Notes: generated from the letters alone by a model not told the origin. Counted from the first letter of the stretch, positions 29,334-51,176 are shown. The stretch is 64,000 nt of DNA from Gammaproteobacteria bacterium (GCA_024639325.1 JAHEIO010000002.1:24132-88131); one strand, 5' to 3'. Made by a program: numbers and translations.

Positions 29334-30440
29334 ATGCAGGCTAATTTTATCCGCGCCGGTTTACTGTTTTTTCTAGCGACCATCGCGTTCTGCTGTGCGG
29401 CGGATGAGAACGCCGGCGCCACCGACTTTCGCCCCAGTCTGCTCGAGGACGAGTGGTACAGCGAAGGGTGGGATCAGATTTTCTATTTCGAAGACGGAAC
29501 ATTACTCGTTTCCCAGATAACGATATTGAACATCGGATTTGGCAGCCATCATGCCGGTGTATTCACCATGCTCGTGGCCCCTGGCGGCGGCAAGACGATC
29601 ATCAAGCAGAGCCGTTCGAACCGGGACTGGGAATTCTCCGAAAGTTCACTTGATTTGGAAATAGCGAAACACCGCTTGCGCGGCCAATCGCCGGTTTATC
29701 GTGTACTGATTCGTCAGAAATCGGATGAGGTGGATGTCACATTCAACTCTATTACCGCGGCCTGGCCCCTGGGTAGAACGCTGGAAATCGAAGAAGCTTA
29801 TCAGTATGTGAGCTTCTATGCGCCGCTGGCCGAAGCCGAAGGCCGCTACAAGCTGGGGGCGGGCGATGAGTCAGAAGGCTCGGAATGGAACAAGCTGCAG
29901 GGCGGCCGCGGTTTTGCCGTGCGCTATGTAAACTCGACCGGCCTGCACGACCTTATACGCAGTTCAACGCGGATCGTCGACCTGGAGCATTCCGCTGTTA
30001 GCCCCGTTATATACACATCCGTGGACGTCGATGGCGGCGTGCAGGTCCATCTTGCGCTGTTCCAGAACGGTCAATTGTTGCACGAAAGCGGAGATTTCGA
30101 TCTGCAAACAAAGGGCAGGATAGAGACCGCGGACAAGGACACGCGGAACATTCCTGATGGGTTTGCAGTCAATATCGAGGAGGATGAATTCGCTCTAACG
30201 GGAACCGTAGAAATTGAAAGGTTCCTTGCCCGTGTGGATCCCGTTGATTCATTGAAACCTTTTGTACGGACGATTGTAAAACTGTTGAATACGCCAATTC
30301 AGTATAGATATCTGGCAAAGTATGACCTGGACTATACGCAGGGCGGCCGAAAGAGCAGACTCCAGGGGCGGGCCTTGATGGATCATATGGTGCTTAGATA
30401 CCAGAGAAAACCCGAAAACGGCACAAATAACACGCGATAA
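29334..30440 (+). CDS. Secreted protein of unknown function (signal peptide)
   Basis: 368 aa with an N-terminal MQANFIRAGLLFFLATIAFCCAADE signal-like sequence and no recognised catalytic motif. It lies immediately upstream of the MMPL gene. Confidence 0.6.
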   Translation: MQANFIRAGLLFFLATIAFCCAADENAGATDFRPSLLEDEWYSEGWDQIFYFEDGTLLVSQITILNIGFGSHHAGVFTMLVAPGGGKTIIKQSRSNRDWEFSESSLDLEIAKHRLRGQSPVYRVLIRQKSDEVDVTFNSITAAWPLGRTLEIEEAYQYVSFYAPLAEAEGRYKLGAGDESEGSEWNKLQGGRGFAVRYVNSTGLHDLIRSSTRIVDLEHSAVSPVIYTSVDVDGGVQVHLALFQNGQLLHESGDFDLQTKGRIETADKDTRNIPDGFAVNIEEDEFALTGTVEIERFLARVDPVDSLKPFVRTIVKLLNTPIQYRYLAKYDLDYTQGGRKSRLQGRALMDHMVLRYQRKPENGTNNTR

Positions 30441-30450
30441 ATGCGGGTGG

Positions 30451-32961
30451 ATGGCTGAAGCAGGCGCGGCAACGGTTTTGGAAGCGGGCGCGGACGACCC
30501 GCCCAAACCTCGTATTCCCGAAAAGCACGTCACCTTCCTCGATCACTGGATTTCATTCCTGATCGCTGCCTACATTCCCTTTCTGCTGGTCGCCGGTGTG
30601 CTCAGTTACTTCAGTTTTGAGATCGCTAAAGGTCTCAAGCTGGATGCTAACATCACATCGCTGATGCCCGACGGCGTGCCCAGTGTCGACAATCTTAAAA
30701 CCGTCATCGATAAAACCGGCGGGTACAACAACGCGATGATACTTGTGGAATCACCGGATCCGGAAATCGCGTTTCGCTATCTCGATGATCTGGGCGCAAG
30801 GATCAGGCAAGAGGACTGGGTTACCAGCGCCGAGTACTCAGAGAACACTGCGATATTCGAACGCAACAAGCTGATTTATGTCGATCAGGAGGATTTGCAG
30901 GAAATGGACCGGCGCCTGGCTGAGCGCATGGAATTCGAGAAAAAGAACCTCGACTTCAGTGTCGATGGGATCCCGGTGGAAGTCACTATCCGTGATGCAC
31001 CCAGAACCCGTCCGGCACTCGAGTTCGAGGACATCGAGTCGAAGTACCGGCGGAAGCAGGCGGGCAGCAGTACCACCAAGTTGTTCACCAGCGAATCTAA
31101 GGATCTGACTATCCTGGTTGTGTTTCCCCAAGGAGGCACCACCAATGTTAAGTACTCCAGAAAAATTATCCGGGATCTCGAGGCGATCATCGCAGAGTCC
31201 GACGCTCAGTCGTACCATCCGGAACTGCGCGTAACGATTGGTGGAAGGATCGCAAATCGCGTTGCCAGCTTCGACTCCATCATGAGCGATGTCAAAGATA
31301 GCGGCTTGTGGTCGATTCTCGCCATATTCCTGGTGGTCGTGCTGTTTTATCGCCGTCTCATGGCAATCTTCTACATCGGGTTGCCGCTCAGCGTCGGATT
31401 TCTGCTCACATTTGCATTGACCAAACTGGTACTGGGCGGGCTCAATCTGGTCACGGTTTTTCTGGTGCTAATTCTGTTCGGACTGGGCATCGACTTCGGA
31501 ATCCACAATCTGGCCCGGTATGACGAAGTTAGAAAGAGCGGCGCCAATATGAGGACCGCGCTCAGAACGATCTACGCGAAAACCGGCCAAGCCTCGCTGC
31601 TGGCGGGGATCACCACGACATGCGGTTTTTATTCCCTGATGTTGACCAACTTCAAGGCGTTCTCGGAGTTTGGCTTCATCGCGGGCAGCGGTATTGTGCT
31701 GACCTTGTTCACGATGTACGTGTTTTTTCCGGCGCTGATGATTTTCGCCGAGAAAATCAGATTGTATCGACCGCCTCGATTCAGTCAGATTCAAAAAAAA
31801 TTAAAGACGCGGCCGTTTCCGGGAGTGGGGCCGATCATGGGCCTTGGAACGGTTTTTGTCTTCGCCGCGTTCTATCTGGCGCCAAATATACAGTTCGAGG
31901 ACGATTTCGGAAAAATAAAGACGAAAGTGCCCGAAATTTCCGAGACCAACGACAAGATAAGGAAAGTGTTTCCCCTGCGCACCGACAAAGCCATGGTGTT
32001 CGTCGAGCAGCTTGAAGACGTGGCGCCGCTGGTGGATGAACTCGAAAAAATCAGGCTCTCCAGGAGCGGTGACGACGTTACCATCGAGAAAGTCAAGTCG
32101 ATCTACAGCGTGGTTCCAAAGTCGGAGGATCAGTACGAGCGTTTGGAGGCCATCGACAGCATTCAACAGAAACTGTTGGAAGCGAGGCGATTGCTCAATG
32201 ATTTCAGTACCGAGAACGATCCGCGAAAACAGGACATCGAAGAAGCACTTCAATATTTCGGCGTGTCGCCGCTGACCGCTCAAGACCTGCCGACCGCGGT
32301 CCAGCGGATGTATACGGGATCGCCGGAGTCGGGCGGATATCTCGTCTATATCTACAACAGCAAAGGCATGTCCAAGCTAGAGAATGCCGAAGCTTTTGTG
32401 AATGACATCCGCGAAATCGAGGCCAATGGTAAAAAGTTCTACCCCGCGACCGAGGCGATGATATTCGTCGACATGATCAACCTGATGAAGCAGGATGCGG
32501 CGCGTGCGATTGGTGTCGTGTTGGCCTCGGTTTTCATCGTTCTTCTGGTTGCGCTCAGGCGACTGAAGCACACCATCGTGGTTATGGTTCCCGTTGTAAT
32601 TGGTATGCTATGGATGCTAGGCCTGATGGTGGCCCTGGACATTCGGCTGAACATTTTCAATATGGTAGTACTGCCCACGGTGCTCGGCATAGGGATCGAT
32701 AACGGCATCCATATTTTTCATCGCTACCAGGAAGAAGGCGGCCGTGTTTTCCACGTTGTCAGAACCACGGGCGGCGCCGCTTTCCTGACCACGCTGACGA
32801 CTATGCTTGGTTTTGCCGGGACGTTGACCGCGTCGAATCAGGGTCTGCAGTCGCTTGGCCTGGTGGCGTGCCTGGGATTGACCTGCTGCATGGTCAGTTC
32901 ACTTACGGTTTTTCCCGCTATCCTGCAGTGGACGGATACTGTCCGTAACGCCAGATCATGA
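30451..32961 (+). CDS. MMPL/RND-superfamily lipid exporter
   Basis: 836 aa with two repeats of a periplasmic loop plus a 5-6 TM bundle (e.g. LILFGLGIDFGIH and VLGIGIDNGIHIFHR), the typical MMPL/HpnN-like architecture. Confidence 0.8.
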   Translation: MAEAGAATVLEAGADDPPKPRIPEKHVTFLDHWISFLIAAYIPFLLVAGVLSYFSFEIAKGLKLDANITSLMPDGVPSVDNLKTVIDKTGGYNNAMILVESPDPEIAFRYLDDLGARIRQEDWVTSAEYSENTAIFERNKLIYVDQEDLQEMDRRLAERMEFEKKNLDFSVDGIPVEVTIRDAPRTRPALEFEDIESKYRRKQAGSSTTKLFTSESKDLTILVVFPQGGTTNVKYSRKIIRDLEAIIAESDAQSYHPELRVTIGGRIANRVASFDSIMSDVKDSGLWSILAIFLVVVLFYRRLMAIFYIGLPLSVGFLLTFALTKLVLGGLNLVTVFLVLILFGLGIDFGIHNLARYDEVRKSGANMRTALRTIYAKTGQASLLAGITTTCGFYSLMLTNFKAFSEFGFIAGSGIVLTLFTMYVFFPALMIFAEKIRLYRPPRFSQIQKKLKTRPFPGVGPIMGLGTVFVFAAFYLAPNIQFEDDFGKIKTKVPEISETNDKIRKVFPLRTDKAMVFVEQLEDVAPLVDELEKIRLSRSGDDVTIEKVKSIYSVVPKSEDQYERLEAIDSIQQKLLEARRLLNDFSTENDPRKQDIEEALQYFGVSPLTAQDLPTAVQRMYTGSPESGGYLVYIYNSKGMSKLENAEAFVNDIREIEANGKKFYPATEAMIFVDMINLMKQDAARAIGVVLASVFIVLLVALRRLKHTIVVMVPVVIGMLWMLGLMVALDIRLNIFNMVVLPTVLGIGIDNGIHIFHRYQEEGGRVFHVVRTTGGAAFLTTLTTMLGFAGTLTASNQGLQSLGLVACLGLTCCMVSSLTVFPAILQWTDTVRNARS

Positions 32962-33765
32962 CGCGGTTTCGAAATCCCGCAGCGGGCGATTGCTGAACTT
33001 GTCCCACGCCGTCTCTTTGTCTGTTTCTCTGGCCAGAATGCTGCCGTCTGGGCGGCGCTCCAGGGTCGGATCGATATAGTATCGGCCGAGCTTTCGGCCG
33101 TCTGCCGGTTCGAACGTATCGCCCAGATATCCCTTTGCGTTCAGATTCAGGATCGTCGCGGGTTCGCCGTCCGCGCCAAACCAGTGCGCGTTGTCCGTAT
33201 ACTCGGTGGTTTTGAAATATTCGTAAGGTGCCAGGATCCGGTCACTGGTTTGCCTCACGGCGAGGGTTCGGTCGTCGATGCGCCGGATCCGCTCGTACTG
33301 CCGAACGTGGGCCTTGCCCTTCAACACGACCTGTGTCGAGACGAGGTTGTGGTGAGCATGCGGCGGCTGACAGGAGTTGGGGGCGACCCACCAGAGCTGC
33401 AGCCGCCAGAGCTTATCAGCGCCGGATCGCGTGATCAGTTTCACCCTTGGGCGGCCATCAGCGAGATCGATCATTCCCTCGTAGATGTCGCGATTGATGT
33501 CGATTTCCTGATAGTACTTGCCAAGCTCCTCTGAAAAGTGCTCGGCGGTGATCTGCTTCGCCTCCAGTCGATTGATCAACTCAACGACCTTTCGGTACAA
33601 CGCACTTTCCGCCGTCGCATCGTTGTCGATGTTCAATAGCTGAAGCAGCCTGGGAACGGCGAAAGGGGAGGCCGCCACCCCGATTCCAATTGCCGCAGAC
33701 AACAGTATGAAGTCACGGCGCTTTACACGATCCATTGCCGGGACGTGATGCACTTGTTCGGTCAT
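32956..33765 (-). CDS. Tat-exported hypothetical protein (possibly cupin-like)
   Basis: Twin-arginine motif MDRVKRRDFILLSAAIGIGVAA and the His-rich segment PPHAHHNLVSTQVVLKG. The start is uncertain: GTG 33801, ATG 33765 or ATG 33735. Confidence 0.55.
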   Translation of the reverse strand: MTEQVHHVPAMDRVKRRDFILLSAAIGIGVAASPFAVPRLLQLLNIDNDATAESALYRKVVELINRLEAKQITAEHFSEELGKYYQEIDINRDIYEGMIDLADGRPRVKLITRSGADKLWRLQLWWVAPNSCQPPHAHHNLVSTQVVLKGKAHVRQYERIRRIDDRTLAVRQTSDRILAPYEYFKTTEYTDNAHWFGADGEPATILNLNAKGYLGDTFEPADGRKLGRYYIDPTLERRPDGSILARETDKETAWDKFSNRPLRDFETAS

Positions 33766-33797
33766 AACGGGACTCTGGAATTCATATGAGCAGTATA

Positions 33798-35033
33798 TCA
33801 CCGCTCATGATTGACGACCGTAGAAACGTGTTTTCTCGAGATTGCCATGGCCATGGCAAAGTGGATACTGATGAACAATATTCCAGCCATGCTAATCCAG
33901 AACAACAGGTGATATCCAAATGGTGTGCCCGTGATCATGGGCGTAATTGACAGCAGAAACACGACGAATGAAAAAGAATCCCGTTTGCCGAGGATCTTCA
34001 GGCTGTCCAGCGCCTTGAACAGCCAGTTGGTCGGCGCTTCGCCCATTTTCTGGCCCAGATCCTGATGCACGGCCGTCATCGTCCCGGGCTGCCGGGTGTC
34101 CACGAGATACCAGGTCATGCCGCCAACCAGCACCAGCATCAACAGCACCATGCTGATGCCGAGCGGAAGCACCCATCCCGCAATCGCGTATTCGTGAGCC
34201 AGGGTGTAGCGTTCATATCCGATGATCAGGCAGACGGCGAACACCACGTATACCAGGTTGTCGCCCACCGTGTCGATCCAGGCGCCCAGCGGAGATGCGC
34301 GGAATGTGCTTCTGGCCAGCTCCCCATCGACCCGATCCAATGCCGCGCACAGTTGGAACAGCGTGCCGCCGATGGCCACGTCGGTCAGCCTGCCCCGGGA
34401 GACGAACCATGCGCTGATGAACCCCACGATGGTTGCCACCAGCGTCATCTGGTTGGGCGTGACGCCGAATTCGCAAAGCACTCGGCTGATAGGAATCGAG
34501 ATCCGCGAGTTCAGGTTGCGTGAAATCGGGCCGGATGTTGATTTGGTTACGTTGGCAAAAATGGCGTCTTTGGCGGCCTTGATATCTTGATGCTCGATCA
34601 CGGGGACGACATAGGCTCCCGTCGGCGAGTCCGGGCGCCAGAGGGGTTCCGGTGCCGAAGACCCGGTTCGTTCCATGCGTGGCGCCGCCGGCACGAATGC
34701 GGGATGTTCACATTCGGAAAGCAATTGCCATACCGGGTTTCCAACGACCACGTTGGCATCGACATGGATATCGGTTTTTTCAATCCGGGTTTGGGAAGTT
34801 TCCCAGCGAATGCCCCTGCCTTTCAGCCGCGGATCATCGCCACATCGGGATCGCGCCGTATCCGCATAGGATCCCGCAACCGAGATTTCGCCGGCGCCCG
34901 CCTGCATGGCGCCCAGGATCAATCGCGTCAGCACCATCACCCCGGCCACCTTCAGAAATGCCGGACTTTCTTCAGGCTCCACATCGGGGAGGTGGATGGT
35001 GACGGTGAACGCTTCCGGTTCAGCTCGATTCAT
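33798..35033 (-). CDS. CDP-alcohol phosphatidyltransferase with degenerate nucleotidyltransferase-like N-terminal domain
   Basis: 411 aa with an intact signature DRVDGELARSTFRASPLGAWIDTVGD (DGxxARx8Gx3Dx3D). The linker TKSTSGPISRNLNSRISIPISR resembles IPCT-DIPPS fusions. The N-domain lacks the GxGxR loop. Confidence 0.8.
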   Translation of the reverse strand: MNRAEPEAFTVTIHLPDVEPEESPAFLKVAGVMVLTRLILGAMQAGAGEISVAGSYADTARSRCGDDPRLKGRGIRWETSQTRIEKTDIHVDANVVVGNPVWQLLSECEHPAFVPAAPRMERTGSSAPEPLWRPDSPTGAYVVPVIEHQDIKAAKDAIFANVTKSTSGPISRNLNSRISIPISRVLCEFGVTPNQMTLVATIVGFISAWFVSRGRLTDVAIGGTLFQLCAALDRVDGELARSTFRASPLGAWIDTVGDNLVYVVFAVCLIIGYERYTLAHEYAIAGWVLPLGISMVLLMLVLVGGMTWYLVDTRQPGTMTAVHQDLGQKMGEAPTNWLFKALDSLKILGKRDSFSFVVFLLSITPMITGTPFGYHLLFWISMAGILFISIHFAMAMAISRKHVSTVVNHER

Positions 35034-36237
35034 ATTGATGCTTCTCGCCGCTCATGGGCAGGTATATGAACCTCATGAGATGGAATGCCAGAGTCAAAAC
35101 GTACCAGACGGTTATCAGTATCAATCCGATCTCCGCATCGCCGAGGATCAGCGCGATGAGCATGCACAACAGGAATGGATTCCGGCGTGCAATGAAGATC
35201 CGGACGGAATAATCGAGCCTGGTATAGTCGTGAAGTTCGTAACCGTACAACCGCTTGTACAGACCGGTGGCGATCTTGTCCGCAAGAAATGACGCTATCA
35301 GTAATGCGTGGATCTGCGCGATCTGATTGGACATATCGAGCAAGGCCCCGCCGCTCAGCGACCATCCGAGGCCGATGTACCATGCCAGCAGATACACGAA
35401 ATCGGAGACATGGTCCAGCAGATCCCCCGACCTGCTGGTCCTCATGGTTACCCTCGCCAGCTTGCCGTCTACGGTATCCAGAAACGCCATGGCAAACCCC
35501 ATGATCGTGGCGACCCAGTAATGACCGGTGAAAAACGGAACTATGGCCCCGAAGGACAAAAGCATGCTGAGCAGGGTGACCTGATTGGGTGTGATCGCAG
35601 TAGGGCTGATCATCCTTACCACCCACCGGGCCGGCAGGTAAAAAACATACTTGGTTATAAAATCGGTGGCGCCTTTGTAAACGGCTGCGAAAGTGATTTT
35701 TTCAGCAAGACGCAAATCTTCGCCGGAGTTCACGGCTATGACGAACGCGCTGACGCGTTTGCGGGTCGCCTGTATGTAGGTGCTGATGTCGGATTCGTGA
35801 ACCAGTTCTGCGGCGTTATCCAAATACCCTGCATGCGTTGTCGCGCCGACAAACCGATTGTCCATGTCGCAGCGGGTGTCCCGACCGGTTTCCTTGAGAT
35901 ACTCCAGAATACGGTTGTCGACCACGACGCCGGCATCGATGACCAGAGCGCGCCCATTGAATGCGGGAATTGAGCGTTCCGTCGAACCCTGGTCTATCTC
36001 CACCGTATCTACCCGTATCTTCGTCCATTTTGAAAAATCCCGCCGGACGAAGTCCTGCAACTGCAGGGGGGAACCACATATGACGCTAGCCTGATCGATG
36101 CCGATCTGAGAAAGCTGGCGCAGCAGCCGCTCCAACAGCGTCATGCCCCACAGGTTTGCCATGGCAAATCGGCCCGTGGCGATCACGTAGGCCCTGGAAA
36201 CACCTCTCGGAATTTCTGAGTTTGATTTGATTATCAT
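35020..36237 (-). CDS. CDP-alcohol phosphatidyltransferase with degenerate nucleotidyltransferase-like N-terminal domain (tandem paralog)
   Basis: Signature DTVDGKLARVTMRTSRSGDLLDHVSD. The start was set at ATG 36237 (MIIKSN...), which forms an ATGA overlap with the upstream flippase stop. The ORF-track extension to 36891 overlaps the flippase gene in another frame. Confidence 0.75.
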   Translation of the reverse strand: MIIKSNSEIPRGVSRAYVIATGRFAMANLWGMTLLERLLRQLSQIGIDQASVICGSPLQLQDFVRRDFSKWTKIRVDTVEIDQGSTERSIPAFNGRALVIDAGVVVDNRILEYLKETGRDTRCDMDNRFVGATTHAGYLDNAAELVHESDISTYIQATRKRVSAFVIAVNSGEDLRLAEKITFAAVYKGATDFITKYVFYLPARWVVRMISPTAITPNQVTLLSMLLSFGAIVPFFTGHYWVATIMGFAMAFLDTVDGKLARVTMRTSRSGDLLDHVSDFVYLLAWYIGLGWSLSGGALLDMSNQIAQIHALLIASFLADKIATGLYKRLYGYELHDYTRLDYSVRIFIARRNPFLLCMLIALILGDAEIGLILITVWYVLTLAFHLMRFIYLPMSGEKHQYESS

Positions 36238-37493
36238 TGGGCTGCCAGGATGCGCCGAACCACCGAACGGCCAAATAGATAAAGCAGTACGAAGTTTACC
36301 AACTGGCCCAGAGGGGCGCCAGTTTGGCCGATCCAGTAAATCATGATGACCGTCGTCGCCAGGCCGGCGATGCCCGCCATGCGCTCCCATATCAACGGCG
36401 CATCTGCCCCGCCTTTCACGACTATTACCGACAACTGGTATTCCGCGAGGCCGTTGAAAATGAACGCGATTGCCAAAATGGCCATTATCGGCCAGGCATC
36501 CGCGTAGGCGTCGCCACCGATCAACCGGACGAGCCACGGGCTGAGGCAAGCCGTTAACAACGGCAGCACGATCATGATCGAATAGTAGAGGCGCCGGTCT
36601 CGGCGGTAGCTCACTGCGTCGAGACCCGCGGCCAGCCTGACCGACAGCGGTCCGGCGAGTATCCTGGCGAGCTGGCTGAGTACCTGTGCCCCCTGCCGCG
36701 CGATGTGGTAACTGGCCATTTGAGCGAGCGGCAGCATGACGGCAATTACGACCCGGTCCAACTGGCGGAAGCCGCGACGGTAGAGCACCCGCTGATAGTC
36801 GGGAAAACAAGCCCTGAGTCGTTTTATCGCGCCGGCCGGGGACAGGGCTTGTAAACTGATGCGCATCAAGATGCTGCGAAGACTCCAGCACGCCAGCAAG
36901 AAGGTAATGAGTACGCCGATCATCAATCCTGCGAACAGGTAATCGACGCCCAGGGCCAGATACAGCAGGAAGGCAAACAGTTTTTCACTCGTTGCTGATC
37001 CCGAGTCGAGTAAAGAATCCAGCCAATACTGCTGCCGGGCGAAAAAAACCGGCGTCAGGATGTACTGGAAGTTTTTCAGCAGAACATGCGTGAAGACGAA
37101 CGGTAGGGCCATCTTAACGTTGATTTCAGGCGCGGCGGCCTGCAGTTCGTCCAGGAATAAATAGCCAAGAACCAGCAGCAGCGCAACAAATCCAATAGTT
37201 GCAGACAGCCGGATCAGCGTCGCCGGCCCGATGACCTTCTCCACGGCTTCTTCGCTCAGGCCCTGATCGATGAGTGGTGTGGCTTCCCGTATGACCTGAA
37301 AATGCAGGCCAAAGTCCAGCAACACCTTGGTCAGCATTACGATTGCGGCATGAACTCCGATCAGGCCCAGCACGGGTTTCGGCAGCTCGCGCGCGAAGTA
37401 AGCCAGAAACAGCAGCGACACCACCGCAACGGCGGCCCGGCTGATTACGATCTCGATAGCGGCGTGCAGTAGGCTTTTATGTTTGGCCTGCAT
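36234..37493 (-). CDS. MOP-superfamily (Wzx-like) polysaccharide/lipid flippase
   Basis: 419 aa, highly hydrophobic with about 12 predicted TM segments, and a general resemblance to polysaccharide biosynthesis (Wzx) transporters. Confidence 0.55.
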   Translation of the reverse strand: MQAKHKSLLHAAIEIVISRAAVAVVSLLFLAYFARELPKPVLGLIGVHAAIVMLTKVLLDFGLHFQVIREATPLIDQGLSEEAVEKVIGPATLIRLSATIGFVALLLVLGYLFLDELQAAAPEINVKMALPFVFTHVLLKNFQYILTPVFFARQQYWLDSLLDSGSATSEKLFAFLLYLALGVDYLFAGLMIGVLITFLLACWSLRSILMRISLQALSPAGAIKRLRACFPDYQRVLYRRGFRQLDRVVIAVMLPLAQMASYHIARQGAQVLSQLARILAGPLSVRLAAGLDAVSYRRDRRLYYSIMIVLPLLTACLSPWLVRLIGGDAYADAWPIMAILAIAFIFNGLAEYQLSVIVVKGGADAPLIWERMAGIAGLATTVIMIYWIGQTGAPLGQLVNFVLLYLFGRSVVRRILAAQ

Positions 37494-37565
37494 GGATCTA
37501 ACACACCCGACGGTCGCTGTGCCGGTCCGGATTCCGGCACCGTCCGAGTACAGAAAAGGTATCGC

Positions 37566-38351
37566 CTAGGAAGCGACCAGCGACAAATTTGAATTCGCCA
37601 GTTTTGAATTCGATTGGCGGACCCAGTTCGAAACCATGGTTTCGGCTTGTGTCCTGTCGACGGGAAAATCCACCTCACACCAGTCCAGTCCCTCGATCGA
37701 GCGAACCTCTACCCGGTTTGTCTGGGCGATGGCACCAATCGCGGACAGATACCAGATGTCAAGCGCGCCATCCGACCTCATCAGCTCGTTCAGCGTGTCG
37801 ACGAAAATACCGGGTCCTTTCCCGTGGAAATAGATCATTCCGATGGACTCGCCGCCGATCCGGTCTGTTGTCAGGTTTTTTCCGATCTCCAGAAGAGTGC
37901 TTCCATCGAGGTGGACCTTCATGTCGTCCTCATCGTAGTGGTCTTTCTTGTCGATGGCCAGAGTAATTGGTGCGGCGGGTTCGTTGAGCAGCCGCCTCAG
38001 TATGTGATAGTGGAAGATTGTGTCACCGTTGATCAACACGAAGTCCGCATCCATGACCCGTCGTGCCATCCAGCAGCTCACAAGATTGTCGGCTACCGCA
38101 TAGAACGGGTTGAATATAGCGTTGATCGTGCATCCTTTATAGACCAGCCTCAACTCGGCAATTTCGTCCTGCAGCACCCGCGCCTTGAATCCGGTGATTA
38201 CGTATATCTCGTTTATGCCGCACTTCGTGAGTTGAGATACCTGCCAGTCCAGCATGCTCCTGCCGGACAGCGCGATCGTCGATTTGGGCCGATCCGACGT
38301 CAACGGCAGCAGACGCTTGCCCTGACCGGCGCCTAGAATAATAGCTTTCAA
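37566..38351 (-). CDS. Nucleotidyltransferase (sugar/alcohol-phosphate cytidylyl- or nucleotidylyl-transferase)
   Basis: 261 aa with N-terminal MKAIILGAGQGKRLLPLTSDRPKSTIAL (GxGxR + PK motif) of the NTP_transferase fold. Confidence 0.8.
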   Translation of the reverse strand: MKAIILGAGQGKRLLPLTSDRPKSTIALSGRSMLDWQVSQLTKCGINEIYVITGFKARVLQDEIAELRLVYKGCTINAIFNPFYAVADNLVSCWMARRVMDADFVLINGDTIFHYHILRRLLNEPAAPITLAIDKKDHYDEDDMKVHLDGSTLLEIGKNLTTDRIGGESIGMIYFHGKGPGIFVDTLNELMRSDGALDIWYLSAIGAIAQTNRVEVRSIEGLDWCEVDFPVDRTQAETMVSNWVRQSNSKLANSNLSLVAS

Positions 38352-38487: not shown

Positions 38488-39528
38488 TCATACCGGCCGG
38501 CTCGCCTGCCTGAGTTCGGTGTAAAGCTCATCCAGCGCGTCGCAAACATCGTCATCGCTGGTTCTGGATATCAATTCGTCATTGATGTGAAAGGATTTGT
38601 AGGTGAGGTTCATGCTGCCCAGGAATGCGCACCGGAATCGATGTTGTTGGGGACCAAGGGGCTCGACGAGCACGAACTTGCAATGCATGGGCAACAGCTC
38701 GGGATGGACGTAACGAAACGCACGAATACCGCTGTCAGATAGTTTGTTTACCGTCTTTTGCGGAAATCTCCGCTCACTGTCGTGGCCGATGACTTCGATA
38801 TGGCTTCCCGAGGCAGCGAGTCGCCGCAACAGGTTCAAGGCCCCTGCATCAGAGATATGGGACACCGCAACTCTGATTTTCAGTTCATTTCCGGGTATGA
38901 GCCCGCGGCGCAGGTAGTCGATCAACAGGTTATCGCGTCGCGAGGGAAGGAACTGCAGGTCGATGTTCCCAAAACTTTCCGGCGGTGATGAAAACCGCCG
39001 TCGGGGGTGGCTGAACAGGGTGGCGAGGTGCTGGCGAACATAGCGGTAGAGGAGAGCGTTTCCGTAAATCCGCAGTAGCAGATTGTATCCCGAATCCTGG
39101 TCGCCTATGACATCGAATACTTGCTGTTCGGCGACGTCGTTTCCGGAAGGATTGTAGGTGCCAAACAGGCATATATTGGATCGGCTTCCGGCCTTGGATG
39201 CCAGAAACAGCTTTAAATGCATCCGACGTTTGAGCAGGTTTGCAGGATGGCGAAAGGCCAGGGTCGACGAATCGAAGCCATGATCCTTCAGAAATTTCTC
39301 TGCTGCCAGGTTGCCGGGTTTATAGTAGGTGTTTCCGGACAGCAGCAGTTTCACTTTTACGCCCCGTCCATGTGCCTCGACCAGTGCCTTACAGAACCTC
39401 ATATTGCGCAGGTAGTAGGTTGCAATGAAAATTTCTTCACCTGAGGGTACGGAGTGGATCAGTTTCAACAGTGACTCGAGCAGTAGTGAGGGCGTGGTGG
39501 GGCGATTGACGAGCAGTGCGATGTCCAC
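38488..39528 (-). CDS. Phospholipase D superfamily protein (two HKD-like motifs)
   Basis: 346 aa with MHLKLFL...GTYNPS and MHCKFVLVE...GSMNLT, i.e. two HxK...G(S/T)xN motifs. The acidic position is non-canonical in the first motif. Confidence 0.7.
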   Translation of the reverse strand: MDIALLVNRPTTPSLLLESLLKLIHSVPSGEEIFIATYYLRNMRFCKALVEAHGRGVKVKLLLSGNTYYKPGNLAAEKFLKDHGFDSSTLAFRHPANLLKRRMHLKLFLASKAGSRSNICLFGTYNPSGNDVAEQQVFDVIGDQDSGYNLLLRIYGNALLYRYVRQHLATLFSHPRRRFSSPPESFGNIDLQFLPSRRDNLLIDYLRRGLIPGNELKIRVAVSHISDAGALNLLRRLAASGSHIEVIGHDSERRFPQKTVNKLSDSGIRAFRYVHPELLPMHCKFVLVEPLGPQQHRFRCAFLGSMNLTYKSFHINDELISRTSDDDVCDALDELYTELRQASRPV

Positions 39529-39597: not shown

Positions 39598-40629
39598 CTA
39601 CACGCCGGCAGGCGGGACCACCGGAAGTCCGGGATCGTTGGTGTCTTGTTTTCGCCAGCCATCGAGAGCGCTCATCTGGTGTACGCAACTCAGCGTGCAG
39701 TATGGCGCGCATTCTTTTCGGGTGTCGAACTCCCTCTCGATATCCCGTTGCGTGTACTGAGTTATCGGTATGCCCGGATAACCCCGGCGTTGGGAACACA
39801 GGTGCACGTTGCCATCTTCACAAATATACAGATACCTGGACCCGGCCCGGCACTTCCAGGAGTTTGGCTTTCCGCGCATCAGATTCTTTTGAAACAGCTT
39901 GTAGTTGACACTGTGTGATATGGAGTGAGAGAGCCCGGTGACTCGTTTGTACGTGTCGAACTGCAGCTCGCTGAAAGGTTTTATCTTCCCGGTATCGTCG
40001 TGTAGTACGCCCACGCTGTGGAAAAAACCGTACTTCCGAGCCGTTTTTGCGACGGCGAATGCATCTTCGGTTCTTTCGTCGCTTATGCCAAGAACGGAGT
40101 TGACATTGACTTTGAACTTGGCGTGCATCGACAGCAACTCTAGTTTGCTTTCGATGGCGTTGAGGCTTTTTTGGGAGACGTCATCCGGCTCCAGGTTGTC
40201 AATGCTGATCTGCATCTCCTGGAGGCCACAGTCATTCAATTCGCGGATACGTCTTTCGTTCAACCGGTACCCATTGGTGATCATGGTCGCGATCATGCCC
40301 TTGCCTCTTATCAGGCGGATGACCCTGGTCAGGTGGGGATTCATGAGGGGTTCTCCCCCGGTGCATGTAATCGCCGCCGTGTTGAGTCTGTAGAGTGCTT
40401 CCACCCGTTCCGCCAGTAGTTCGGCCGGTACCGGGGGCGAAAAATCATCGTATTCGTTGCAATATCCGCAGCTCAGATTGCATCTGCGAGTGACCACCAT
40501 CTGCGCGAGCAGCGGATTGTAGCGCGAGGACAATGCTTTCCATAAAAAACGCCCGATACCCGGGCCCATGCCGTTTCCGATTGATTCGTACGTCATTGAC
40601 ATGTTTGAATTGCGCTGTTTAGCCCCCAT
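39598..40629 (-). CDS. Radical SAM enzyme with C-terminal Cys-rich (SPASM-like) region
   Basis: 343 aa with the CNLSCGYC (CxxxCxxC) cluster motif, the GGEP SAM motif, and a C-terminal WKCRAG...YICEDGNVHLC...CAPYCTLSC region. The start is uncertain among N-terminal Mets. Confidence 0.75.
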   Translation of the reverse strand: MGAKQRNSNMSMTYESIGNGMGPGIGRFLWKALSSRYNPLLAQMVVTRRCNLSCGYCNEYDDFSPPVPAELLAERVEALYRLNTAAITCTGGEPLMNPHLTRVIRLIRGKGMIATMITNGYRLNERRIRELNDCGLQEMQISIDNLEPDDVSQKSLNAIESKLELLSMHAKFKVNVNSVLGISDERTEDAFAVAKTARKYGFFHSVGVLHDDTGKIKPFSELQFDTYKRVTGLSHSISHSVNYKLFQKNLMRGKPNSWKCRAGSRYLYICEDGNVHLCSQRRGYPGIPITQYTQRDIEREFDTRKECAPYCTLSCVHQMSALDGWRKQDTNDPGLPVVPPAGV

Positions 40630-40750
40630 TTATCGAATGAGTAGCGGTTTGACTTATATGCGGCTTCCGTTACCGAAACGCTCGATGTGAGTCGTTTCGG
40701 ATGTGGGGACGCAATATTACCTCATCTGGTCATCGGTTTGATGCATTGTT

Positions 40751-41416
40751 TTGAATAAGCGATTTATTGTTCGCTGCGCGCTGGTTGCGTTGCTGGCGGG
40801 AGACGGGCCGTTCGCCGTTGCCGAGGACCTTTGCGGTGAAATTCCTCCCGCGGCATTCAAGTCGCTGGAAGGCACGGCGTTCGAAAAGGTCAGGATCCAG
40901 GCGGATGAGATAGAATTTCCCGGCCGTAATGTCGTTATCCTGCGCGGTTACACCCAGTTGTTCAGGGGTGGACACCGGGTCAACTCGGATGCACTGGTTT
41001 ACTACAAGGCTAGGAACACGGTGGAGGCGAGGGGCTCCGTTACACTGCAGACCCGGAAAGGGGACGTCGTGAAGACGGACGTTCTGGCCTACGACATAAA
41101 AACCGGCATGGCCGTATCCGGCCCGGCGGAGTTTTCGATAGCAAACCGCCGGAGCGAGGTTCTTGGTTCGGCGGATAGTACCGTCAATGCCTTTGGAACA
41201 GCGGCGCGGGTCATGTTCGAGTCCGCCGATATCATGCTGCTGGAGGAAGCGGATGTTACGAGTTGTCTCGACGGTGAAAAAGACATTACTTTCCATGCCG
41301 TAAAGCTGCGGGTCGATCTAAACGAAGGCGTGCGCACCGGGACCCGTGTGAAGATCAGGATCGAAAATCCCGGTAAACACCGAAAACTGAGTGAACTCCA
41401 GAGGCTTATAGAGTGA
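40751..41416 (+). CDS. LptD N-terminal (OstA/beta-jellyroll) domain protein; truncated relative to full-length LptD
   Basis: 221 aa with a signal peptide. ...VRIQADEIEF..NVVILRGYTQLFRGGHRVNSDALVYY...EARGSV... and DVTSCLDGEKDITFHAVKLRVDLNEGV..TRVKI parallel E. coli LptD residues up to ...[26 protein letters not shown]..ARFKV. The ORF then stops where the LptD beta-barrel would begin. Confidence 0.65.
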   Translation: MNKRFIVRCALVALLAGDGPFAVAEDLCGEIPPAAFKSLEGTAFEKVRIQADEIEFPGRNVVILRGYTQLFRGGHRVNSDALVYYKARNTVEARGSVTLQTRKGDVVKTDVLAYDIKTGMAVSGPAEFSIANRRSEVLGSADSTVNAFGTAARVMFESADIMLLEEADVTSCLDGEKDITFHAVKLRVDLNEGVRTGTRVKIRIENPGKHRKLSELQRLIE

Positions 41417-41467
41417 GTAATATCTCGCGCAGGCACACCGCCTCAGCGAGATCCGGTCAGCGTTCGC

Positions 41468-42298
41468 TCAGGTCGCAGTTCGATCTGCCGTTCCGTCGGC
41501 ATAGTTCAACAAGGCATCCCGAAGATTTCTGTTGGTGCGACGTTGAGTTCTTCGCAACCAGATCAGCAGGCCGTTCAGCAGTATTATCTCGTAGAGAAAA
41601 AAAAGAATCGGTATTTTCGCCATACAGGATAGCGACAAGGCGATTGTCCTTTTATTGGAGCTCAACAATGTCCACAGACGGACGCTGCGCAGTGAGTGCG
41701 CCTGGTATGTTTTGCCGAATGTCCCCCGATCCGGGTGGCCACGCAGTTCTCTTTCGGCACTGATCAACTCATTGTCCGGCTCGGAAACCAGGTGCTGCAA
41801 TCTGACATACACACAATGACCCGCACGGAGCAGCGTGGCAGCGACCCCTGATCTGAAATCCAGTTCTATCGGATCTAGTGTTTGTGAGCATTTTCCGGTG
41901 TTACCATGCACCCAGCAGTCGTAATTATCCCGGTGAAATTCCAGGGCACCGGCCTGCAGTGCATGGCTCAGGCCCGCTGCAATTGCCAACAACCATATCG
42001 ACGTCCCGTATTGGGGTTGAAGCGCCAGAGCCAGGGCAACATAGACCATGCCGAAGCCCAGGTGGTCGCACAGGCCGTCGATAACTTTTCCAAACTCCGA
42101 TGTCGTTCCGGTCAATCGCGCCAGTTGCCCATCTGCGCCGTCGAGGACGTGCCACCCCGTCATGAAGACCAATCCCAGCATGGACATCGTGATGCTCTGG
42201 TAGTTATAGAAGCACCATGAAGCGATTAGTGCACTTGCCATGCCGAGTAGCGAAACAGTGTTCGGACTCCAGCCCCATAGCGCAAAAAGGCGGGTCAA
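41468..42298 (-). CDS. CDP-alcohol phosphatidyltransferase (stand-alone)
   Basis: 276 aa with the signature DGADGQLARLTGTTSEFGKVIDGLCD and multiple TM segments. Confidence 0.8.
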   Translation of the reverse strand: MTRLFALWGWSPNTVSLLGMASALIASWCFYNYQSITMSMLGLVFMTGWHVLDGADGQLARLTGTTSEFGKVIDGLCDHLGFGMVYVALALALQPQYGTSIWLLAIAAGLSHALQAGALEFHRDNYDCWVHGNTGKCSQTLDPIELDFRSGVAATLLRAGHCVYVRLQHLVSEPDNELISAERELRGHPDRGTFGKTYQAHSLRSVRLWTLLSSNKRTIALSLSCMAKIPILFFLYEIILLNGLLIWLRRTQRRTNRNLRDALLNYADGTADRTAT

Positions 42299-42442: not shown

Positions 42443-43630
42443 TCAATCGGCAGGTTGGTGTTTGCTGTCTTTGGGTTGCAGTACATACAGCCGCCCGGTC
42501 TGTTTCATCAATCCAGCCATGCGTTCCGCTCTTTCTCCCCGTCCCCAGAAAACGTCGGCACGTATGTGTCCCTTTATCGCTCCACCCGTGTCTTGGGCCA
42601 GCATGACTCGCCGGTAGGGTTCCTTGCTATGCGGGAAAGTAGTTTCCAGCCAGATAGGTGTTCCCAGAGTTATGACGCCGGGATCCACCGCGATGCTGCG
42701 TTCCGCAACCAGCGGCACGTTCAGGGAACCATAGGGACCAACCTCTGGGGTGATTCGTTCCGAAAAAAACACGTAGCTCGGATTGCGCCGAAACAGAGCA
42801 TCGACCCGTGACGGATTGTTGCGCAACCATTCACGTATACTGAACAGATTTACATCATCCTCGTGCAACTCGTCCAGCGCAATCAACTCCCTTCCGATCG
42901 ATTGGTAGGGGTGGCCGTTCTGGTCCGCATAACCCACGCCTAGTACGGTGCCATCGGGCAGCATCACCCGGCCGGAGCCCTGGATATGGAGGAAGAACAA
43001 GGCGATCGGATCATCTACCCACACCAGTTCATTGCCCTTGAGAAGATCCGGGTTTTCGTCCAGAGACGAGCGGCTGTAATAAGGAACGACTTTGTTTCCA
43101 CTGAGTCGCCCTCGCAGACGCTTGCCCTCGAGTTCCGGATAAAGATCCGACAGCTCGACGGTGATGAGGTCGCGCGGACGCTTGTATATCGGGTAGCGAT
43201 AGCGCCCGTTTCGCTGCAGGCTGCCTGAAAGCAGCGGCTCATAGTAGCCGGTGATGAGCCCGGAGCGTTTACCGCCGACGCCGTAAAGTGCGTGCGGAAC
43301 GAACCATTGTTCGTAGAAGGTGCGAGCCTGTAGGTCCGTCGGATTCGACAATTCGACTGCGGCATGGCACAGGGCGAACCATTGGGACTCATTATTGAGT
43401 TTCGAACAGCTCCTCAGCAGGGCGCCCCAGGATTCGGCATGCCGGTCGTCTTTCCAGCCGTCGAGCTGCGACCACTTTACGGCTTCCCCGATCCCGGGGT
43501 CGGGAGTGGTCGTGCACCCCCAGAGAAGTGCTGCGCAACAGAAAAGATAAACGGATCTTTGCAGAGGCATAAGAGATTGGAATGATGTCGGGACCATGGG
43601 ATAGTATACATAAAACGTAACTGTCCTCAT
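42443..43630 (-). CDS. mltA: Membrane-bound lytic murein transglycosylase A
   Basis: About 375-395 aa with a lipoprotein-like signal ...LFCCAALLWGCTT. MltA-specific and 3D-domain blocks are present (GYYEP, RYPIY, IDFFWG-like RADVFWGRG). The start is uncertain (43630, 43597 or 43570). Confidence 0.85.
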   Translation of the reverse strand: MRTVTFYVYYPMVPTSFQSLMPLQRSVYLFCCAALLWGCTTTPDPGIGEAVKWSQLDGWKDDRHAESWGALLRSCSKLNNESQWFALCHAAVELSNPTDLQARTFYEQWFVPHALYGVGGKRSGLITGYYEPLLSGSLQRNGRYRYPIYKRPRDLITVELSDLYPELEGKRLRGRLSGNKVVPYYSRSSLDENPDLLKGNELVWVDDPIALFFLHIQGSGRVMLPDGTVLGVGYADQNGHPYQSIGRELIALDELHEDDVNLFSIREWLRNNPSRVDALFRRNPSYVFFSERITPEVGPYGSLNVPLVAERSIAVDPGVITLGTPIWLETTFPHSKEPYRRVMLAQDTGGAIKGHIRADVFWGRGERAERMAGLMKQTGRLYVLQPKDSKHQPAD

Positions 43631-48527: not shown

Positions 48528-51176
48528 TTAATTTAGATTTTGGACACCGAGGGCGTTCAAATTGTCCCGGGCGACTTTGTCGCCTTGCTCTGCGGCAAGT
48601 TTTAGCCATTTTACGGCCTCGATTCTATTCTGAGCTACGCCTTTGCCGTCCGCATACATGGCGCCAAGGTTGGTCTGGGCACCCGCGTAGCCCTGTTCCG
48701 CCGCCGCGCGATACCAGCGCACGGCTTCCTTGTCGTTTTTTGTAACCAGCAGGCCGGTCTGATACAAGGAGCCGAGATCAGCCTGTGCCCAGGCGGCGCC
48801 GGCCACTGCGGCATTCTGGATTTGGGGAAATGCCTTTTTGATCAAGTTTGTTCCCGCGTCCAGGTTCTGGTCCACACCACGGCCCCGGAGATACATCACC
48901 CCGAGTCGAAACTGTGCCCGGGTACTCCCTTGCTCGGCCAGGGGTTTGAGGAGCGTGTATGCTGTTTCGTATCGACCGCTGTAGTAAGCGTCGATCCCCT
49001 TTGCCACCTGTTGTTCGTCGATCTTAACTTTCTGTACCGGGGGTTTTTTCTTTTTGTCAACTCGCGATGTGTCTGCGCGCTGCTGCTGTCGCGCGCTGGC
49101 CAGGGCCGATTGACGCAGTTTCATCTGCTCGCGCAAAAGATTCAGCGTCTCACTTTCCGGGTCGATCGATGCGGCGAGTGTCAAGTTTCTCTCCACTTCA
49201 TCGAAGCGGTCGATCGCCAGCGCTTTGTTGGCCTGGTCGACATAATATCGGTATATGCCGGAGATGCCCGCCAGCGCTTCCTCGTTTTCGGGGTCGATGC
49301 TCAACGCTTCTCTCAAGTAGGGCAGAGCATTCGCTGCGGATGAACGTGTCAGCGCTTTCCCGCCGTACGCGTCTTTTGCCTGAAGCAGCAGGGAACGAAT
49401 ACGGCTGGCGTTCTCGGATTGTCGGATTGTCTCCTGCTCCGCCGGCTGCTGTTCCTCGAGCCGTTGTTGCTCGGCGAGTTTTTCCAGCCTGATCCTTTCC
49501 TGTTCCACCCGCTGCTGTTCTTCGAGTCGCTGTTGTTCGGTGAGTCTTATCTGCCTGCTGCGCTCCTCTGCCGCTGATCTAGTTTGTATCTGCTCATCCA
49601 GTTGCTTGCGCAGTGCCGCCATGCTTTCAATTTCGATATCGGAGTCTTCGAGATCATCGAGAATCGTCATCGCCGTGTCCAGTTCTCCCCTCTCGAGGTT
49701 GTCTTTGGCGCGCGTTATCAGCGCCGTAACGATTTCGTCGATTCCTTGCCGCGCATCGATATTGCCTTCATCCAGTAACAGTACAGCCCGGAAGCTCGCA
49801 AGCGCATTCTCGTTTGCGGGTTTAATCATCTCCCCACGCTCCATCTTCTCCCTTGCGGTATCGAGGAGGGCGCGTATCCCCTTGGTTTTCTGGTCCAGGT
49901 TGCGGTATTGCTCCATACGAAAATCGTCGGCCTTGCGCGTAAACTTCACGGATTCAGGAAGGTCGGGGGGGGCGTCGCCCGGCAAAGGACGTTGCAGTAT
50001 GTCCTGCGGGATTTTTGTACCCTCGATGTTCGACGGCGCCTCGGTGACCTCACGCTCCGGCGGCGAAATGAATGGTTTTATCTGGGGCCAGAAGGTAAAG
50101 ATCCCGACAGCTATCAGAAATCCCAGCGAAATGATCCAAAACAGGGGATTCGATCCGCTTGGGACCCGTTTCGGCGGGACCCGGGTCCTCGGGTCAGCGT
50201 AGAGCCTGGGCGCGTCGAGCTTGATTTCTTTTTGCGCAACTTTCGGCGGTTGGATTTGTTGCTGCTCTTCCGGATCTGCCTCGCCGTGGTTTTCGGTCTC
50301 GGCAAAAGCTGGCATGATTTCATCAACGGATTGCGGGCGATCCTGCGGGGCCGGTCGCATCAGACGGTCGACTGCGTCGAGTATCCGGGAGCCATAGCCA
50401 CTGCGGTAGGTTTCTGCAGCGGATGGCAGCGGGTCTGGATTGCCGCGGGTCAGTTCTGATACCCGCGTGTTTGCAGCCACGGGGACGCGACCGGAAATGC
50501 ACCGGTACATCACCGCCCCCATTGCGTAAAGATCCGTCCACGGGCCCAGTTTGCCCTGGTCATTGTATTGTTCGATCGCGCTGTATCCCGGCGTGACCCG
50601 CGATTCCAGCTCGGCATTCCAGATTGGCAAGGTTCGGTGCGTACTGCCAAACCCAAGTAGCAGGGGCAGCCCGCCGTCGCGAATGAAGATATTTTCGGGA
50701 TTGACATCACGATGGAGCAGTCCGTGGGAATGGACTACCCGCAGCCCCTTCAGCAGTGGAACGAACAGATCACACAGCTCGGTTTGCGCCAGTTCTCCAT
50801 GCTGTTCCAGGTGGGCATTCAGTGTGATCCCGGATTCCAGATCCATCGACAGAAAAGCGGTTCCACCTGCTTCTGCATATTCCCTGACTCGGGTGAGATA
50901 GGGTTCCTGTATTTGTGAGAGGATGCGCGCCTCCTGGAGGAACAATGTGAGGCCTTCCTCGAATCTGCTTTCCTGGCCTGGCAACGGTTGTACGGCGGTG
51001 CTGCCCGGATGGCGTTCCGCAAGCTCCCGGGGAAAATACTCCTGTAACCAGAACTCCTGCTCCGTATCCTCGAGTCGAGCGCGATAGATCACGCTGTGGC
51101 TGTTGGTGTCCACGACCTCGACGATCGCGTACTTGCCTACGCGCGTGTTGGCTTTCAGTGCACGGGGTGGGGCCAT
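48528..51176 (-). CDS. Transmembrane Ser/Thr-kinase-like protein (degenerate catalytic motifs) with coiled-coil and TPR/Sel1-repeat extracytoplasmic region
   Basis: 882 aa with kinase-like LLHRDVNPENIFI, LLLGFGS (in place of DFG) and TPGYSAIEQ. One TM segment (LFWIISLGFLIAVGIFTFW), an EQQRLEEQQ coiled coil, and C-terminal Sel1-like repeats (A.F.LG.MY..G.GV..N...A..W...AA). Confidence 0.75.
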   Translation of the reverse strand: MAPPRALKANTRVGKYAIVEVVDTNSHSVIYRARLEDTEQEFWLQEYFPRELAERHPGSTAVQPLPGQESRFEEGLTLFLQEARILSQIQEPYLTRVREYAEAGGTAFLSMDLESGITLNAHLEQHGELAQTELCDLFVPLLKGLRVVHSHGLLHRDVNPENIFIRDGGLPLLLGFGSTHRTLPIWNAELESRVTPGYSAIEQYNDQGKLGPWTDLYAMGAVMYRCISGRVPVAANTRVSELTRGNPDPLPSAAETYRSGYGSRILDAVDRLMRPAPQDRPQSVDEIMPAFAETENHGEADPEEQQQIQPPKVAQKEIKLDAPRLYADPRTRVPPKRVPSGSNPLFWIISLGFLIAVGIFTFWPQIKPFISPPEREVTEAPSNIEGTKIPQDILQRPLPGDAPPDLPESVKFTRKADDFRMEQYRNLDQKTKGIRALLDTAREKMERGEMIKPANENALASFRAVLLLDEGNIDARQGIDEIVTALITRAKDNLERGELDTAMTILDDLEDSDIEIESMAALRKQLDEQIQTRSAAEERSRQIRLTEQQRLEEQQRVEQERIRLEKLAEQQRLEEQQPAEQETIRQSENASRIRSLLLQAKDAYGGKALTRSSAANALPYLREALSIDPENEEALAGISGIYRYYVDQANKALAIDRFDEVERNLTLAASIDPESETLNLLREQMKLRQSALASARQQQRADTSRVDKKKKPPVQKVKIDEQQVAKGIDAYYSGRYETAYTLLKPLAEQGSTRAQFRLGVMYLRGRGVDQNLDAGTNLIKKAFPQIQNAAVAGAAWAQADLGSLYQTGLLVTKNDKEAVRWYRAAAEQGYAGAQTNLGAMYADGKGVAQNRIEAVKWLKLAAEQGDKVARDNLNALGVQNLN
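49446..49544. repeat. Intragenic 33-nt near-duplicate with 66-nt period (encodes EQQRLEEQQ coiled-coil units)
   Basis: CTGCTGTTCCTCGAGCCGTTGTTGCTCGGCGAG (49446-49478) versus CTGCTGTTCTTCGAGTCGCTGTTGTTCGGTGAG (49512-49544). Confidence 0.7.

Follow-up and report, generated by a model that had tools for sequence, protein, structure and literature searches.

We describe a stand-alone gene for an LptD-like beta-jellyroll at positions 40,751 to 41,416 of a 64,000-nucleotide stretch of DNA from Gammaproteobacteria bacterium (GCA_024639325.1 JAHEIO010000002.1:24132-88131); we refer to this whole stretch as the window. The gene lies within a cluster of lipid genes. The reading that we favor, and that we hold to be somewhat probable, is that its product is a secreted, soluble periplasmic paralogue of the LptD N-terminal domain, an old truncated duplicate that has been kept in addition to an intact lptD and that serves the lipid of the adjacent cluster. 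To our knowledge, all characterised proteins with the Lpt jellyroll fold hold acyl chains in a groove and pass the lipid along head-to-tail chains of jellyrolls (LptC, LptA, LptD). Because of this known mode of action, the best reading of its role, by analogy, is a module that binds the lipid of the cluster in the periplasm or serves as a bridge for it there. The gene, its parts and its two flanking gaps are as follows, where A1 is the alignment of the family.

40630-40750 (no strand): divergent intergenic region of 121 bp, common to the jellyroll and radical-SAM genes
40751-41416 (+): stand-alone LptD-N-like beta-jellyroll gene, 221 amino acids (aa), TTG start, TGA stop (list of open reading frames, ORFs)
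40751-40822 (+): predicted Sec signal peptide, residues 1-24, A-V-A followed by the cleavage site (sequence and A1)
40832-40834 (+): codon of the invariant Cys28 (A1), counterpart of LptD Cys31 by alignment with E. coli LptD
40892-41362 (+): predicted beta-jellyroll core, residues 48-204 (AlphaFold2, AF2, secondary structure, pLDDT 83-94 over most of it; Foldseek)
41264-41266 (+): codon of the invariant Cys172 in a VTSCLDG motif (A1), counterpart of LptD Cys173 by the LptD alignments
41336-41413 (+): conserved C-terminal tail and short basic amphipathic helix, in place of the entry to the LptD barrel (A1)
41417-41467 (no strand): convergent intergenic gap of 51 bp, filled by a hairpin, between the stop codon of the jellyroll gene and the gene at 41468-42298

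At the level of sequence, the resemblance of the jellyroll protein to E. coli LptD is weak yet real. Its two Pfam matches both fall below threshold: LptD_N (PF03968) has an E-value of 0.037 and 14.7 bits against a threshold of 20.4, and OstA_2 (PF13100) has an E-value of 0.018 and 15.1 bits against 21.2. Three other members of the family (P0049, P0052 and P0053) clear the PF03968 threshold, with 22.8-27.6 bits. The NCBIfam LptD equivalog aligns its positions 49-196, out of 783, with residues 45-196 of the jellyroll protein (E 0.003), and the score for NF002997 (LptD) is 15.8 bits where the cut-off is 683. When the family profile is compared with PDB sequences, LptD alone is matched (E 0.12-0.43), and a direct hhalign comparison of the profile with E. 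coli LptD has a probability of 76.6% and an E-value of 2e-5, with query positions 31-205 on LptD 24-196. That alignment places C28 on LptD C31, and C172 of the VTSC motif on C173 of the E. coli FTSC motif, in agreement with the first-pass annotation of the window, where an alignment from the N-terminal cysteine through the TSC block had been drawn by eye. An exhaustive hidden Markov model (HMM) search of 1.84 billion representatives finds 11 short family members with E < 1e-30. In the tier that follows them are proteins of full length (720-850 aa) for which the match falls at the N-terminus (E 1e-27 to 1e-10); these proteins carry the PF04453 barrel (up to E 1e-92) and are bona fide LptDs. With BLASTP, the jellyroll protein is 32% identical to each of two full-length gammaproteobacterial LptDs (167 aligned residues with E 7e-26 for one, 218 with E 2e-25 for the other), and the alignments stop at LptD residues 227-228, immediately ahead of the barrel; the protein does end where the barrel should begin, as had been supposed.

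The predicted fold points the same way. The AF2 model of the jellyroll protein (pLDDT 77.6, pTM 0.70) is all-beta from residue 48 to 204 and ends in a short C-terminal helix. In the PDB, LptD structures make up the best Foldseek matches (E 6e-8 to 2e-7, TMq 0.53-0.59); LptA/LptH and LptC come next, and the 35 top matches include no other protein. On the combined evidence of sequence and predicted fold, we assign the jellyroll protein as a homologue of the LptD N-terminal beta-jellyroll, in the OstA/LptD_N fold superfamily. Its closest relative in both respects is the N-terminal periplasmic domain of LptD (approximately residues 25-226 in E. coli; PDB 4q35, 5iv9, 8h1s), with which it has in common a signal peptide followed by an early cysteine, the cysteine of the TSC motif, and the end of the domain. 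The jellyroll protein is itself neither an LptD nor an LptA. It ends at residue 221 with no PF04453 barrel by Pfam and no barrel CC motif, and its gene is outside the lptD-surA context, whereas LptD has a 26-strand barrel (PF04453), the barrel CC motif and surA as a neighbor. It also differs from LptD in being encoded by a separate gene linked to non-LPS (lipopolysaccharide) lipid genes, and in having a tail of its own (RVKIRIxxPxKHxRL) and a short helix. As for LptA, the TIGR03002 cut-off is 71.7 bits and the jellyroll protein reaches 16.1, and in the window neither lptB nor lptC is found near the gene; for TIGR04409 the score is 12 bits against a cut-off of 38. LptA/LptH and LptC are, like the jellyroll protein, single-domain exported beta-jellyrolls of similar size, and a shared mode of action (a hydrophobic groove, head-to-tail docking) is presumed; unlike them, the jellyroll protein derives from LptD-N by phylogeny, has the LptD cysteines, and is encoded outside an lptC-lptA-lptB operon. 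Labels of family members in public records vary between LptD, LptA and hypothetical. In a distant subfamily of 269-290 aa (P0051; L027 10001-10810), part of the jellyroll is duplicated internally. This subfamily clears the Pfam thresholds for both LptC and LptD_N, and JGI labels one of its members LptA.

The two ends of the protein are both family features. The 221-aa ORF and its signal peptide, already noted in the first-pass annotation, are upheld by the ORF list, the sequence and alignment A1. The signal peptide is a prediction read from the sequence and the alignment: the n-region is basic, residues 4-15 form a hydrophobic helix in the AF2 model, and a conserved A-x-A precedes E25, with A24 almost invariant. 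No member has a lipobox ahead of C28 in A1, which rules out a lipoprotein. The tail aligns with the final N-domain strands of LptD and has four invariant residues (R199, I204, P207 and H210); distant members P0044-P0053 have the same tail motif and the same end point. The tail helix (residues 211-220) has low confidence in the AF2 model. Between the two ends, the cysteines C28 and C172 most likely form an intramolecular disulfide, akin to the 1-2 folding intermediate of LptD. The partners of the LptD N-domain cysteines lie in its barrel, and it is the lack of these barrel cysteines in the jellyroll protein that makes a C28-C172 bond probable. Downstream of the gene, the distance to the convergent gene, estimated earlier at about 50 bp, is 51 bp, with the next gene at 41468-42298 (-). 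The gap includes a hairpin at 41422-41452 with 13-nt arms; its role as a terminator is only plausible, because its z-score is -1.9 and it has no T-run. In the 121-bp divergent region upstream (40630-40750), a simple scan finds no match to the sigma-70 consensus.

The gene is not specific to the window. A search of 5.8 billion proteins gives 43 homologue clusters with 42-96% identity and lengths of 204-251 aa, save one fragment of 125 aa. A scan of one genome per species finds it in 17 species, each of them represented by a Gammaproteobacteria or Arenicellales metagenome-assembled genome (MAG) and each with the gene at the corresponding place, and a scan of metagenomes finds 5 loci; related clusters do keep a short OstA-domain gene. 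Alignment A1 has 44 invariant positions, among them C28, C172 and residues of the tail. Nei-Gojobori dN/dS values for unsaturated pairs are 0.05-0.12 (between the genes of the window and of locus L007, dN is 0.016 and dS 0.129). Judged by these comparisons, the gene is functional and kept under purifying selection. We find no barrel remnants either: tblastn with the full E. coli LptD, a distant relative, and with its barrel alone, in the window and in 23 loci, gives only noise (E > 3) apart from the N-domain, and the 51-bp gap downstream leaves no room for a remnant. The GC content is level at 0.52-0.61 over 24-46 kb of the window, and the synteny flanking the jellyroll gene is unbroken in relatives.

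The short gene is a paralogue that coexists with an intact lptD and does not replace it. We examined this coexistence on a contig of a related MAG, CAMYJT010000004.1, which holds both the short gene of locus L022 and, approximately 55 kb away, an lptD followed by surA. This lptD encodes a complete LptD of 750 aa (P0244) with the N-domain cysteines and a DACCW motif in the barrel, and the short protein is 27% identical to its N-domain. The best-scoring full-length relative of the family, P0056, which comes from a MAG within the same study series, likewise has the canonical lptD-surA arrangement. In the loci that we examined, the short gene is never in an lptD-surA or lptCAB context, and canonical lptD-surA pairs are found elsewhere in related MAGs. 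In a neighbor-joining tree of N-domains, built from sequences other than LptA, the short family forms one monophyletic clade (79/100) that nests among the LptDs of Gammaproteobacteria, and both cysteine columns are conserved across the short family and the full-length LptDs in the N-domain alignment. The monophyly and the nesting point to a single old event in which lptD was duplicated and truncated, within the lineage of the uncultured, marine gammaproteobacterial order Arenicellales, followed by retention.

The jellyroll gene is persistently linked to lipid genes. In every locus with usable flanks, a lipid gene directly adjoins it, either a radical-SAM gene upstream, or a same-strand fatty-acid desaturase gene immediately downstream, or both. 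The radical-SAM gene is the most constant neighbor, adjacent in most loci and divergent or, as in L001, L008 and L009, co-directional; in L001 and L008, the radical-SAM, jellyroll and desaturase genes follow each other in one direction. The convergent CDP-alcohol transferase gene keeps its position in several loci. The linkage includes distant loci with rearranged contexts. P0053 (L026) has a CDP-alcohol transferase, again in the convergent position, a short-chain dehydrogenase/reductase (SDR) and an Spt-like gene alongside, and P0201 (L027), in an otherwise different context, has the radical-SAM gene alongside. In the window, the surrounding cluster and the neighboring mltA gene are composed as follows.

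26980-27969 (+): SDR reductase, HpnA/OleD-like, overlapping the oxoamine synthase gene (family HMM searches)
27960-29219 (+): alpha-oxoamine synthase, nearest to serine palmitoyltransferase (Spt; model NF047600, 528 bits against a cut-off of 640)
29334-30440 (+): putative exported orphan protein of 368 aa, AttH-like double beta-barrel, directly upstream of the MMPL gene (signal-peptide-like N-terminus, AF2, Foldseek)
30451-32961 (+): HpnN/BstA-like MMPL (resistance-nodulation-division, RND) inner-membrane lipid transporter (Pfam MMPL E 4e-39; TIGR03480 E 6e-89)
33798-38351 (-): whole head-group block, with two CDP-alcohol transferases, a flippase-like protein and an NTP transferase
33798-36234 (-): two CDP-alcohol phosphatidyltransferase paralogues of about 400 aa (family HMM searches)
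36234-37493 (-): MOP-flippase-like membrane protein (family HMM searches)
37566-38351 (-): NTP transferase (family HMM searches)
38488-39528 (-): two-domain PLD-like protein (Pfam PLDc_2 E 4e-23)
39598-40629 (-): radical-SAM enzyme of 343 aa with a Cys-rich, SPASM/twitch-like C-terminus (Pfam Radical_SAM E 8e-19)
41468-42298 (-): third CDP-alcohol phosphatidyltransferase, 276 aa, the convergent neighbor (Pfam E 8e-13)
42443-43630 (-): mltA (family HMM searches)

Several of these genes are relatives of known families and not members of them. The oxoamine synthase is also below the cut-offs of the BioF and Kbl models. The MMPL protein has 299 bits for TIGR03480 (cut-off 752), 146 for NF052374 (1100) and 174 for NF045600 (1400), which by sequence makes it related to the HpnN/BstA transporters and not one of them. 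For the radical-SAM enzyme, no NCBIfam model reaches its cut-off. The window contains no hopanoid or sterol synthesis genes. The orphan protein at 29334-30440 has no Pfam or NCBIfam match. Its AF2 model (pLDDT 83, pTM 0.82) resembles AttH, pericyclases and a 25-phosphosteroid lyase by Foldseek (E 1e-9 to 8e-11). The AttH-like fold binds hydrophobic ligands, and the modelled fold makes the orphan a candidate periplasmic lipid carrier that partners the MMPL pump. We rejected a ceramide synthase identity for it, given the AttH-like fold and the lack of a family match. The orphan has 31 homologue clusters, in the same lineage as the jellyroll gene. The cluster has three CDP-alcohol phosphatidyltransferase paralogues, two of them with N-terminal extensions of about 200 aa, and together with the NTP transferase and the MOP-flippase-like gene they suggest more than one kind of phospho-alcohol head group, or the assembly of a head group in several steps. 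Both enzyme types of the head-group block have IPCT/DIPPS-like matches. A Kennedy-like head-group route has been proposed for the inositol lipids of Bacteroidetes (PMC9246714), and the NTP transferase and CDP-alcohol transferases of the cluster are similar to it.

A few other genes in or near the cluster deserve mention. An ORF of 281 aa (32956-33801, -) has a twin-arginine-like signal (RRDFIL) and a faint cupin/PCO_ADO similarity, and it may be an exported cupin-type enzyme of the lipid cluster; tblastn finds it in the window and in L007 only. Among the loci, the PLD-like gene, which sits between the NTP transferase and radical-SAM genes, is confined to the window and its closest relatives, L007 and L029. 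A gene for a Ser/Thr protein kinase with fused Sel1/TPR repeats (48528-51176, -) keeps a syntenic place close to the cluster in several loci, and in L027 (10878-13478) and L028 it is the immediate convergent neighbor of the jellyroll gene. Further away, an ORF of 611 aa (58265-60100, -) joins TetR/BetI-type regulator domains, at residues 31-212, to the alpha subunit of a Rieske ring-hydroxylating oxygenase, at residues 256-587; it is a true fusion, or else the ORF caller has run two genes together.

Under the periplasmic-module reading, the lipid would be made by the enzymes of the cluster: the Spt-like oxoamine synthase and the reductase, the CDP-alcohol transferases and the NTP transferase, the radical-SAM enzyme and, in some genomes, the desaturase. 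The HpnN-like MMPL pump would extract this lipid from the inner membrane, and the groove of the jellyroll would shield its acyl chains after that step and pass it on towards the outer membrane, perhaps together with the AttH-like protein. The jellyroll could act alone, or it could dock edge-to-edge with LptA or with the LptD N-domain, as Lpt modules do. A more specific hybrid route we put forward tentatively, as a possibility that we rather doubt: the MMPL/RND pump would extract a sphingoid or phospho-alcohol lipid, which the AttH-like protein and the jellyroll would carry across the periplasm, possibly through the LptA/LptD bridge. The first-pass annotation had offered a deliberately stand-alone module that hands the cluster's lipid across the periplasm; the maintained gene and its persistent link to lipid genes are established, while the hand-over itself we only infer.

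Several observations weigh against this reading. In the AF2 model, residues 17-42, C28 included, have low confidence. The loci are all from a single narrow and uncultured lineage, and for that reason the conserved synteny may partly reflect shared ancestry. Within 10 kb of the jellyroll gene, four species (L013, L014, L016 and L017) have no radical-SAM, MMPL or Spt-like gene, and have the desaturase only. In the window, the jellyroll gene points away from the radical-SAM operon and towards the CDP-alcohol transferase gene, and with this orientation it is not co-transcribed with the cluster. The oxoamine synthase is below the NCBIfam cut-off for Spt, as given above, and in the cluster we recognise no candidate for the ceramide synthase bCerS, a result obtained with no reference bCerS sequence in the comparison. 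Finally, mltA is adjacent in nearly all Arenicellales loci. Since mltA is not kept next to the distant members in L026 and L027, we reject a functional link with the jellyroll and judge the adjacency to be inherited gene order.

We have considered four other explanations. The best of them, which we still find unlikely, is that the protein is an accessory or alternative part of canonical LPS transport, and that its position by the lipid cluster is inherited gene order and nothing more. It could add a module to the bridge, or dock to LptA or LptD as a regulator or a decoy. The protein descends from the LptD N-domain, which binds LptA and LPS, and it keeps both cysteines and both edge strands; the synteny data come from a single order, and four species retain the gene with no MMPL/Spt/radical-SAM block nearby. 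Against this, the gene is absent from lptD-surA and lptCAB contexts, the rearranged distant members adjoin radical-SAM, CDP-alcohol transferase, SDR or Spt-like genes and not lpt genes, and 27% identity to the LptD N-domain of the same genome amounts to a strong divergence. A second explanation, for which we see a smaller chance still, is a substrate-presenting or scaffold protein that would hold the lipid for periplasm-facing enzymes acting on its head group or acyl chains, in modification and not in transport. It would account for the most constant neighbors being radical-SAM, desaturase and CDP-alcohol transferase genes, rather than the MMPL gene, but radical-SAM enzymes and membrane desaturases generally work on the cytoplasmic side, and the known functions of Lpt jellyrolls are all in lipid transfer.

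A third explanation is a split LptD-like translocon, in which the jellyroll protein would be the N-terminal half and would pair, possibly through its cysteines, with a separate outer-membrane barrel for the lipid of the cluster. The cysteines that bond to barrel cysteines in LptD are invariant in the family despite the absence of a barrel, and the conserved C-terminal tail could dock to one. None of the loci examined has a barrel-only LptD-like gene, however, and Chng et al. in 2012 reportedly described an intramolecular C1-C2 disulfide in LptD folding intermediates. The canonical LptD on the same contig as the short gene has a complete N-domain and a CC motif of its own, which makes a split LptD improbable. 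The last explanation, the scar proposed in the first-pass annotation, in which the gene is the remnant of a duplicated lptD cut by a rearrangement and marks an island boundary, fits the end at exactly the jellyroll/barrel boundary with a convergent gene 51 bp on, and has in our view a negligible probability: equal length and end across 43 clusters and 17 species, the dN/dS values, the conserved family-specific tail and the lack of barrel remnants rule out a pseudogene, and the flat GC and the continuous synteny of the flanks rule out a boundary.

The periplasmic-module reading has precedents in known systems. In Caulobacter sphingolipid loci, the paralogues LptF2, LptG2 and LptC2 are needed for sphingolipid transport, while the periplasmic and outer-membrane components of that transport are unknown and no duplications of LptA or LptD/E were found in sphingolipid loci; in Myxococcus, an MmpL gene adjoins spt (bioRxiv 10.64898/2026.04.12.717747). 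The likeness to the jellyroll gene is that of Lpt paralogues in an Spt-type locus with a proposed role in moving a non-LPS lipid out of the inner membrane. The difference is that LptF2/G2/C2 are inner-membrane parts that work with LptB, whereas here the exporter is of the MMPL/RND type and the paralogue has its origin in the part of the bridge next to the outer membrane. The first-pass annotation had suggested a new use of the Lpt jellyroll, which in this light is less unprecedented, although the preprint reports no duplicates of LptA or LptD/E. A second precedent is found in HpnN (hopanoids) and BstABC (sterols), where, as we propose for the cluster of the window, an RND/MMPL exporter is encoded with dedicated exported lipid-binding proteins. 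The MMPL protein of the window scores best against the HpnN and BstA models, yet below their cut-offs, and where the Bst system has BstB and BstC as periplasmic partners, the cluster has AttH-like and Lpt-jellyroll folds. The literature that we consulted on stand-alone LptD N-domain paralogues, on Spt and MmpL clusters, and on Arenicellales sphingolipids does not describe the jellyroll family.

The jellyroll family is the kind of LptD duplication that the Caulobacter preprint had not found in sphingolipid loci. It shows that the LptD N-domain is able to exist as an independent protein with both of its cysteines kept, which bears on the folding of LptD and on the design of antibiotics that target this domain. 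As a small, soluble and readily expressed protein, it offers a test of a possible recruitment of the Lpt jellyroll for another lipid, and of the combination of an MMPL pump with Lpt parts. If the hybrid route were true, the jellyroll would be the first Lpt paralogue in the periplasm or near the outer membrane to be dedicated to a non-LPS lipid, and the family is a candidate for the missing link in the passage of non-LPS lipids across the periplasm.

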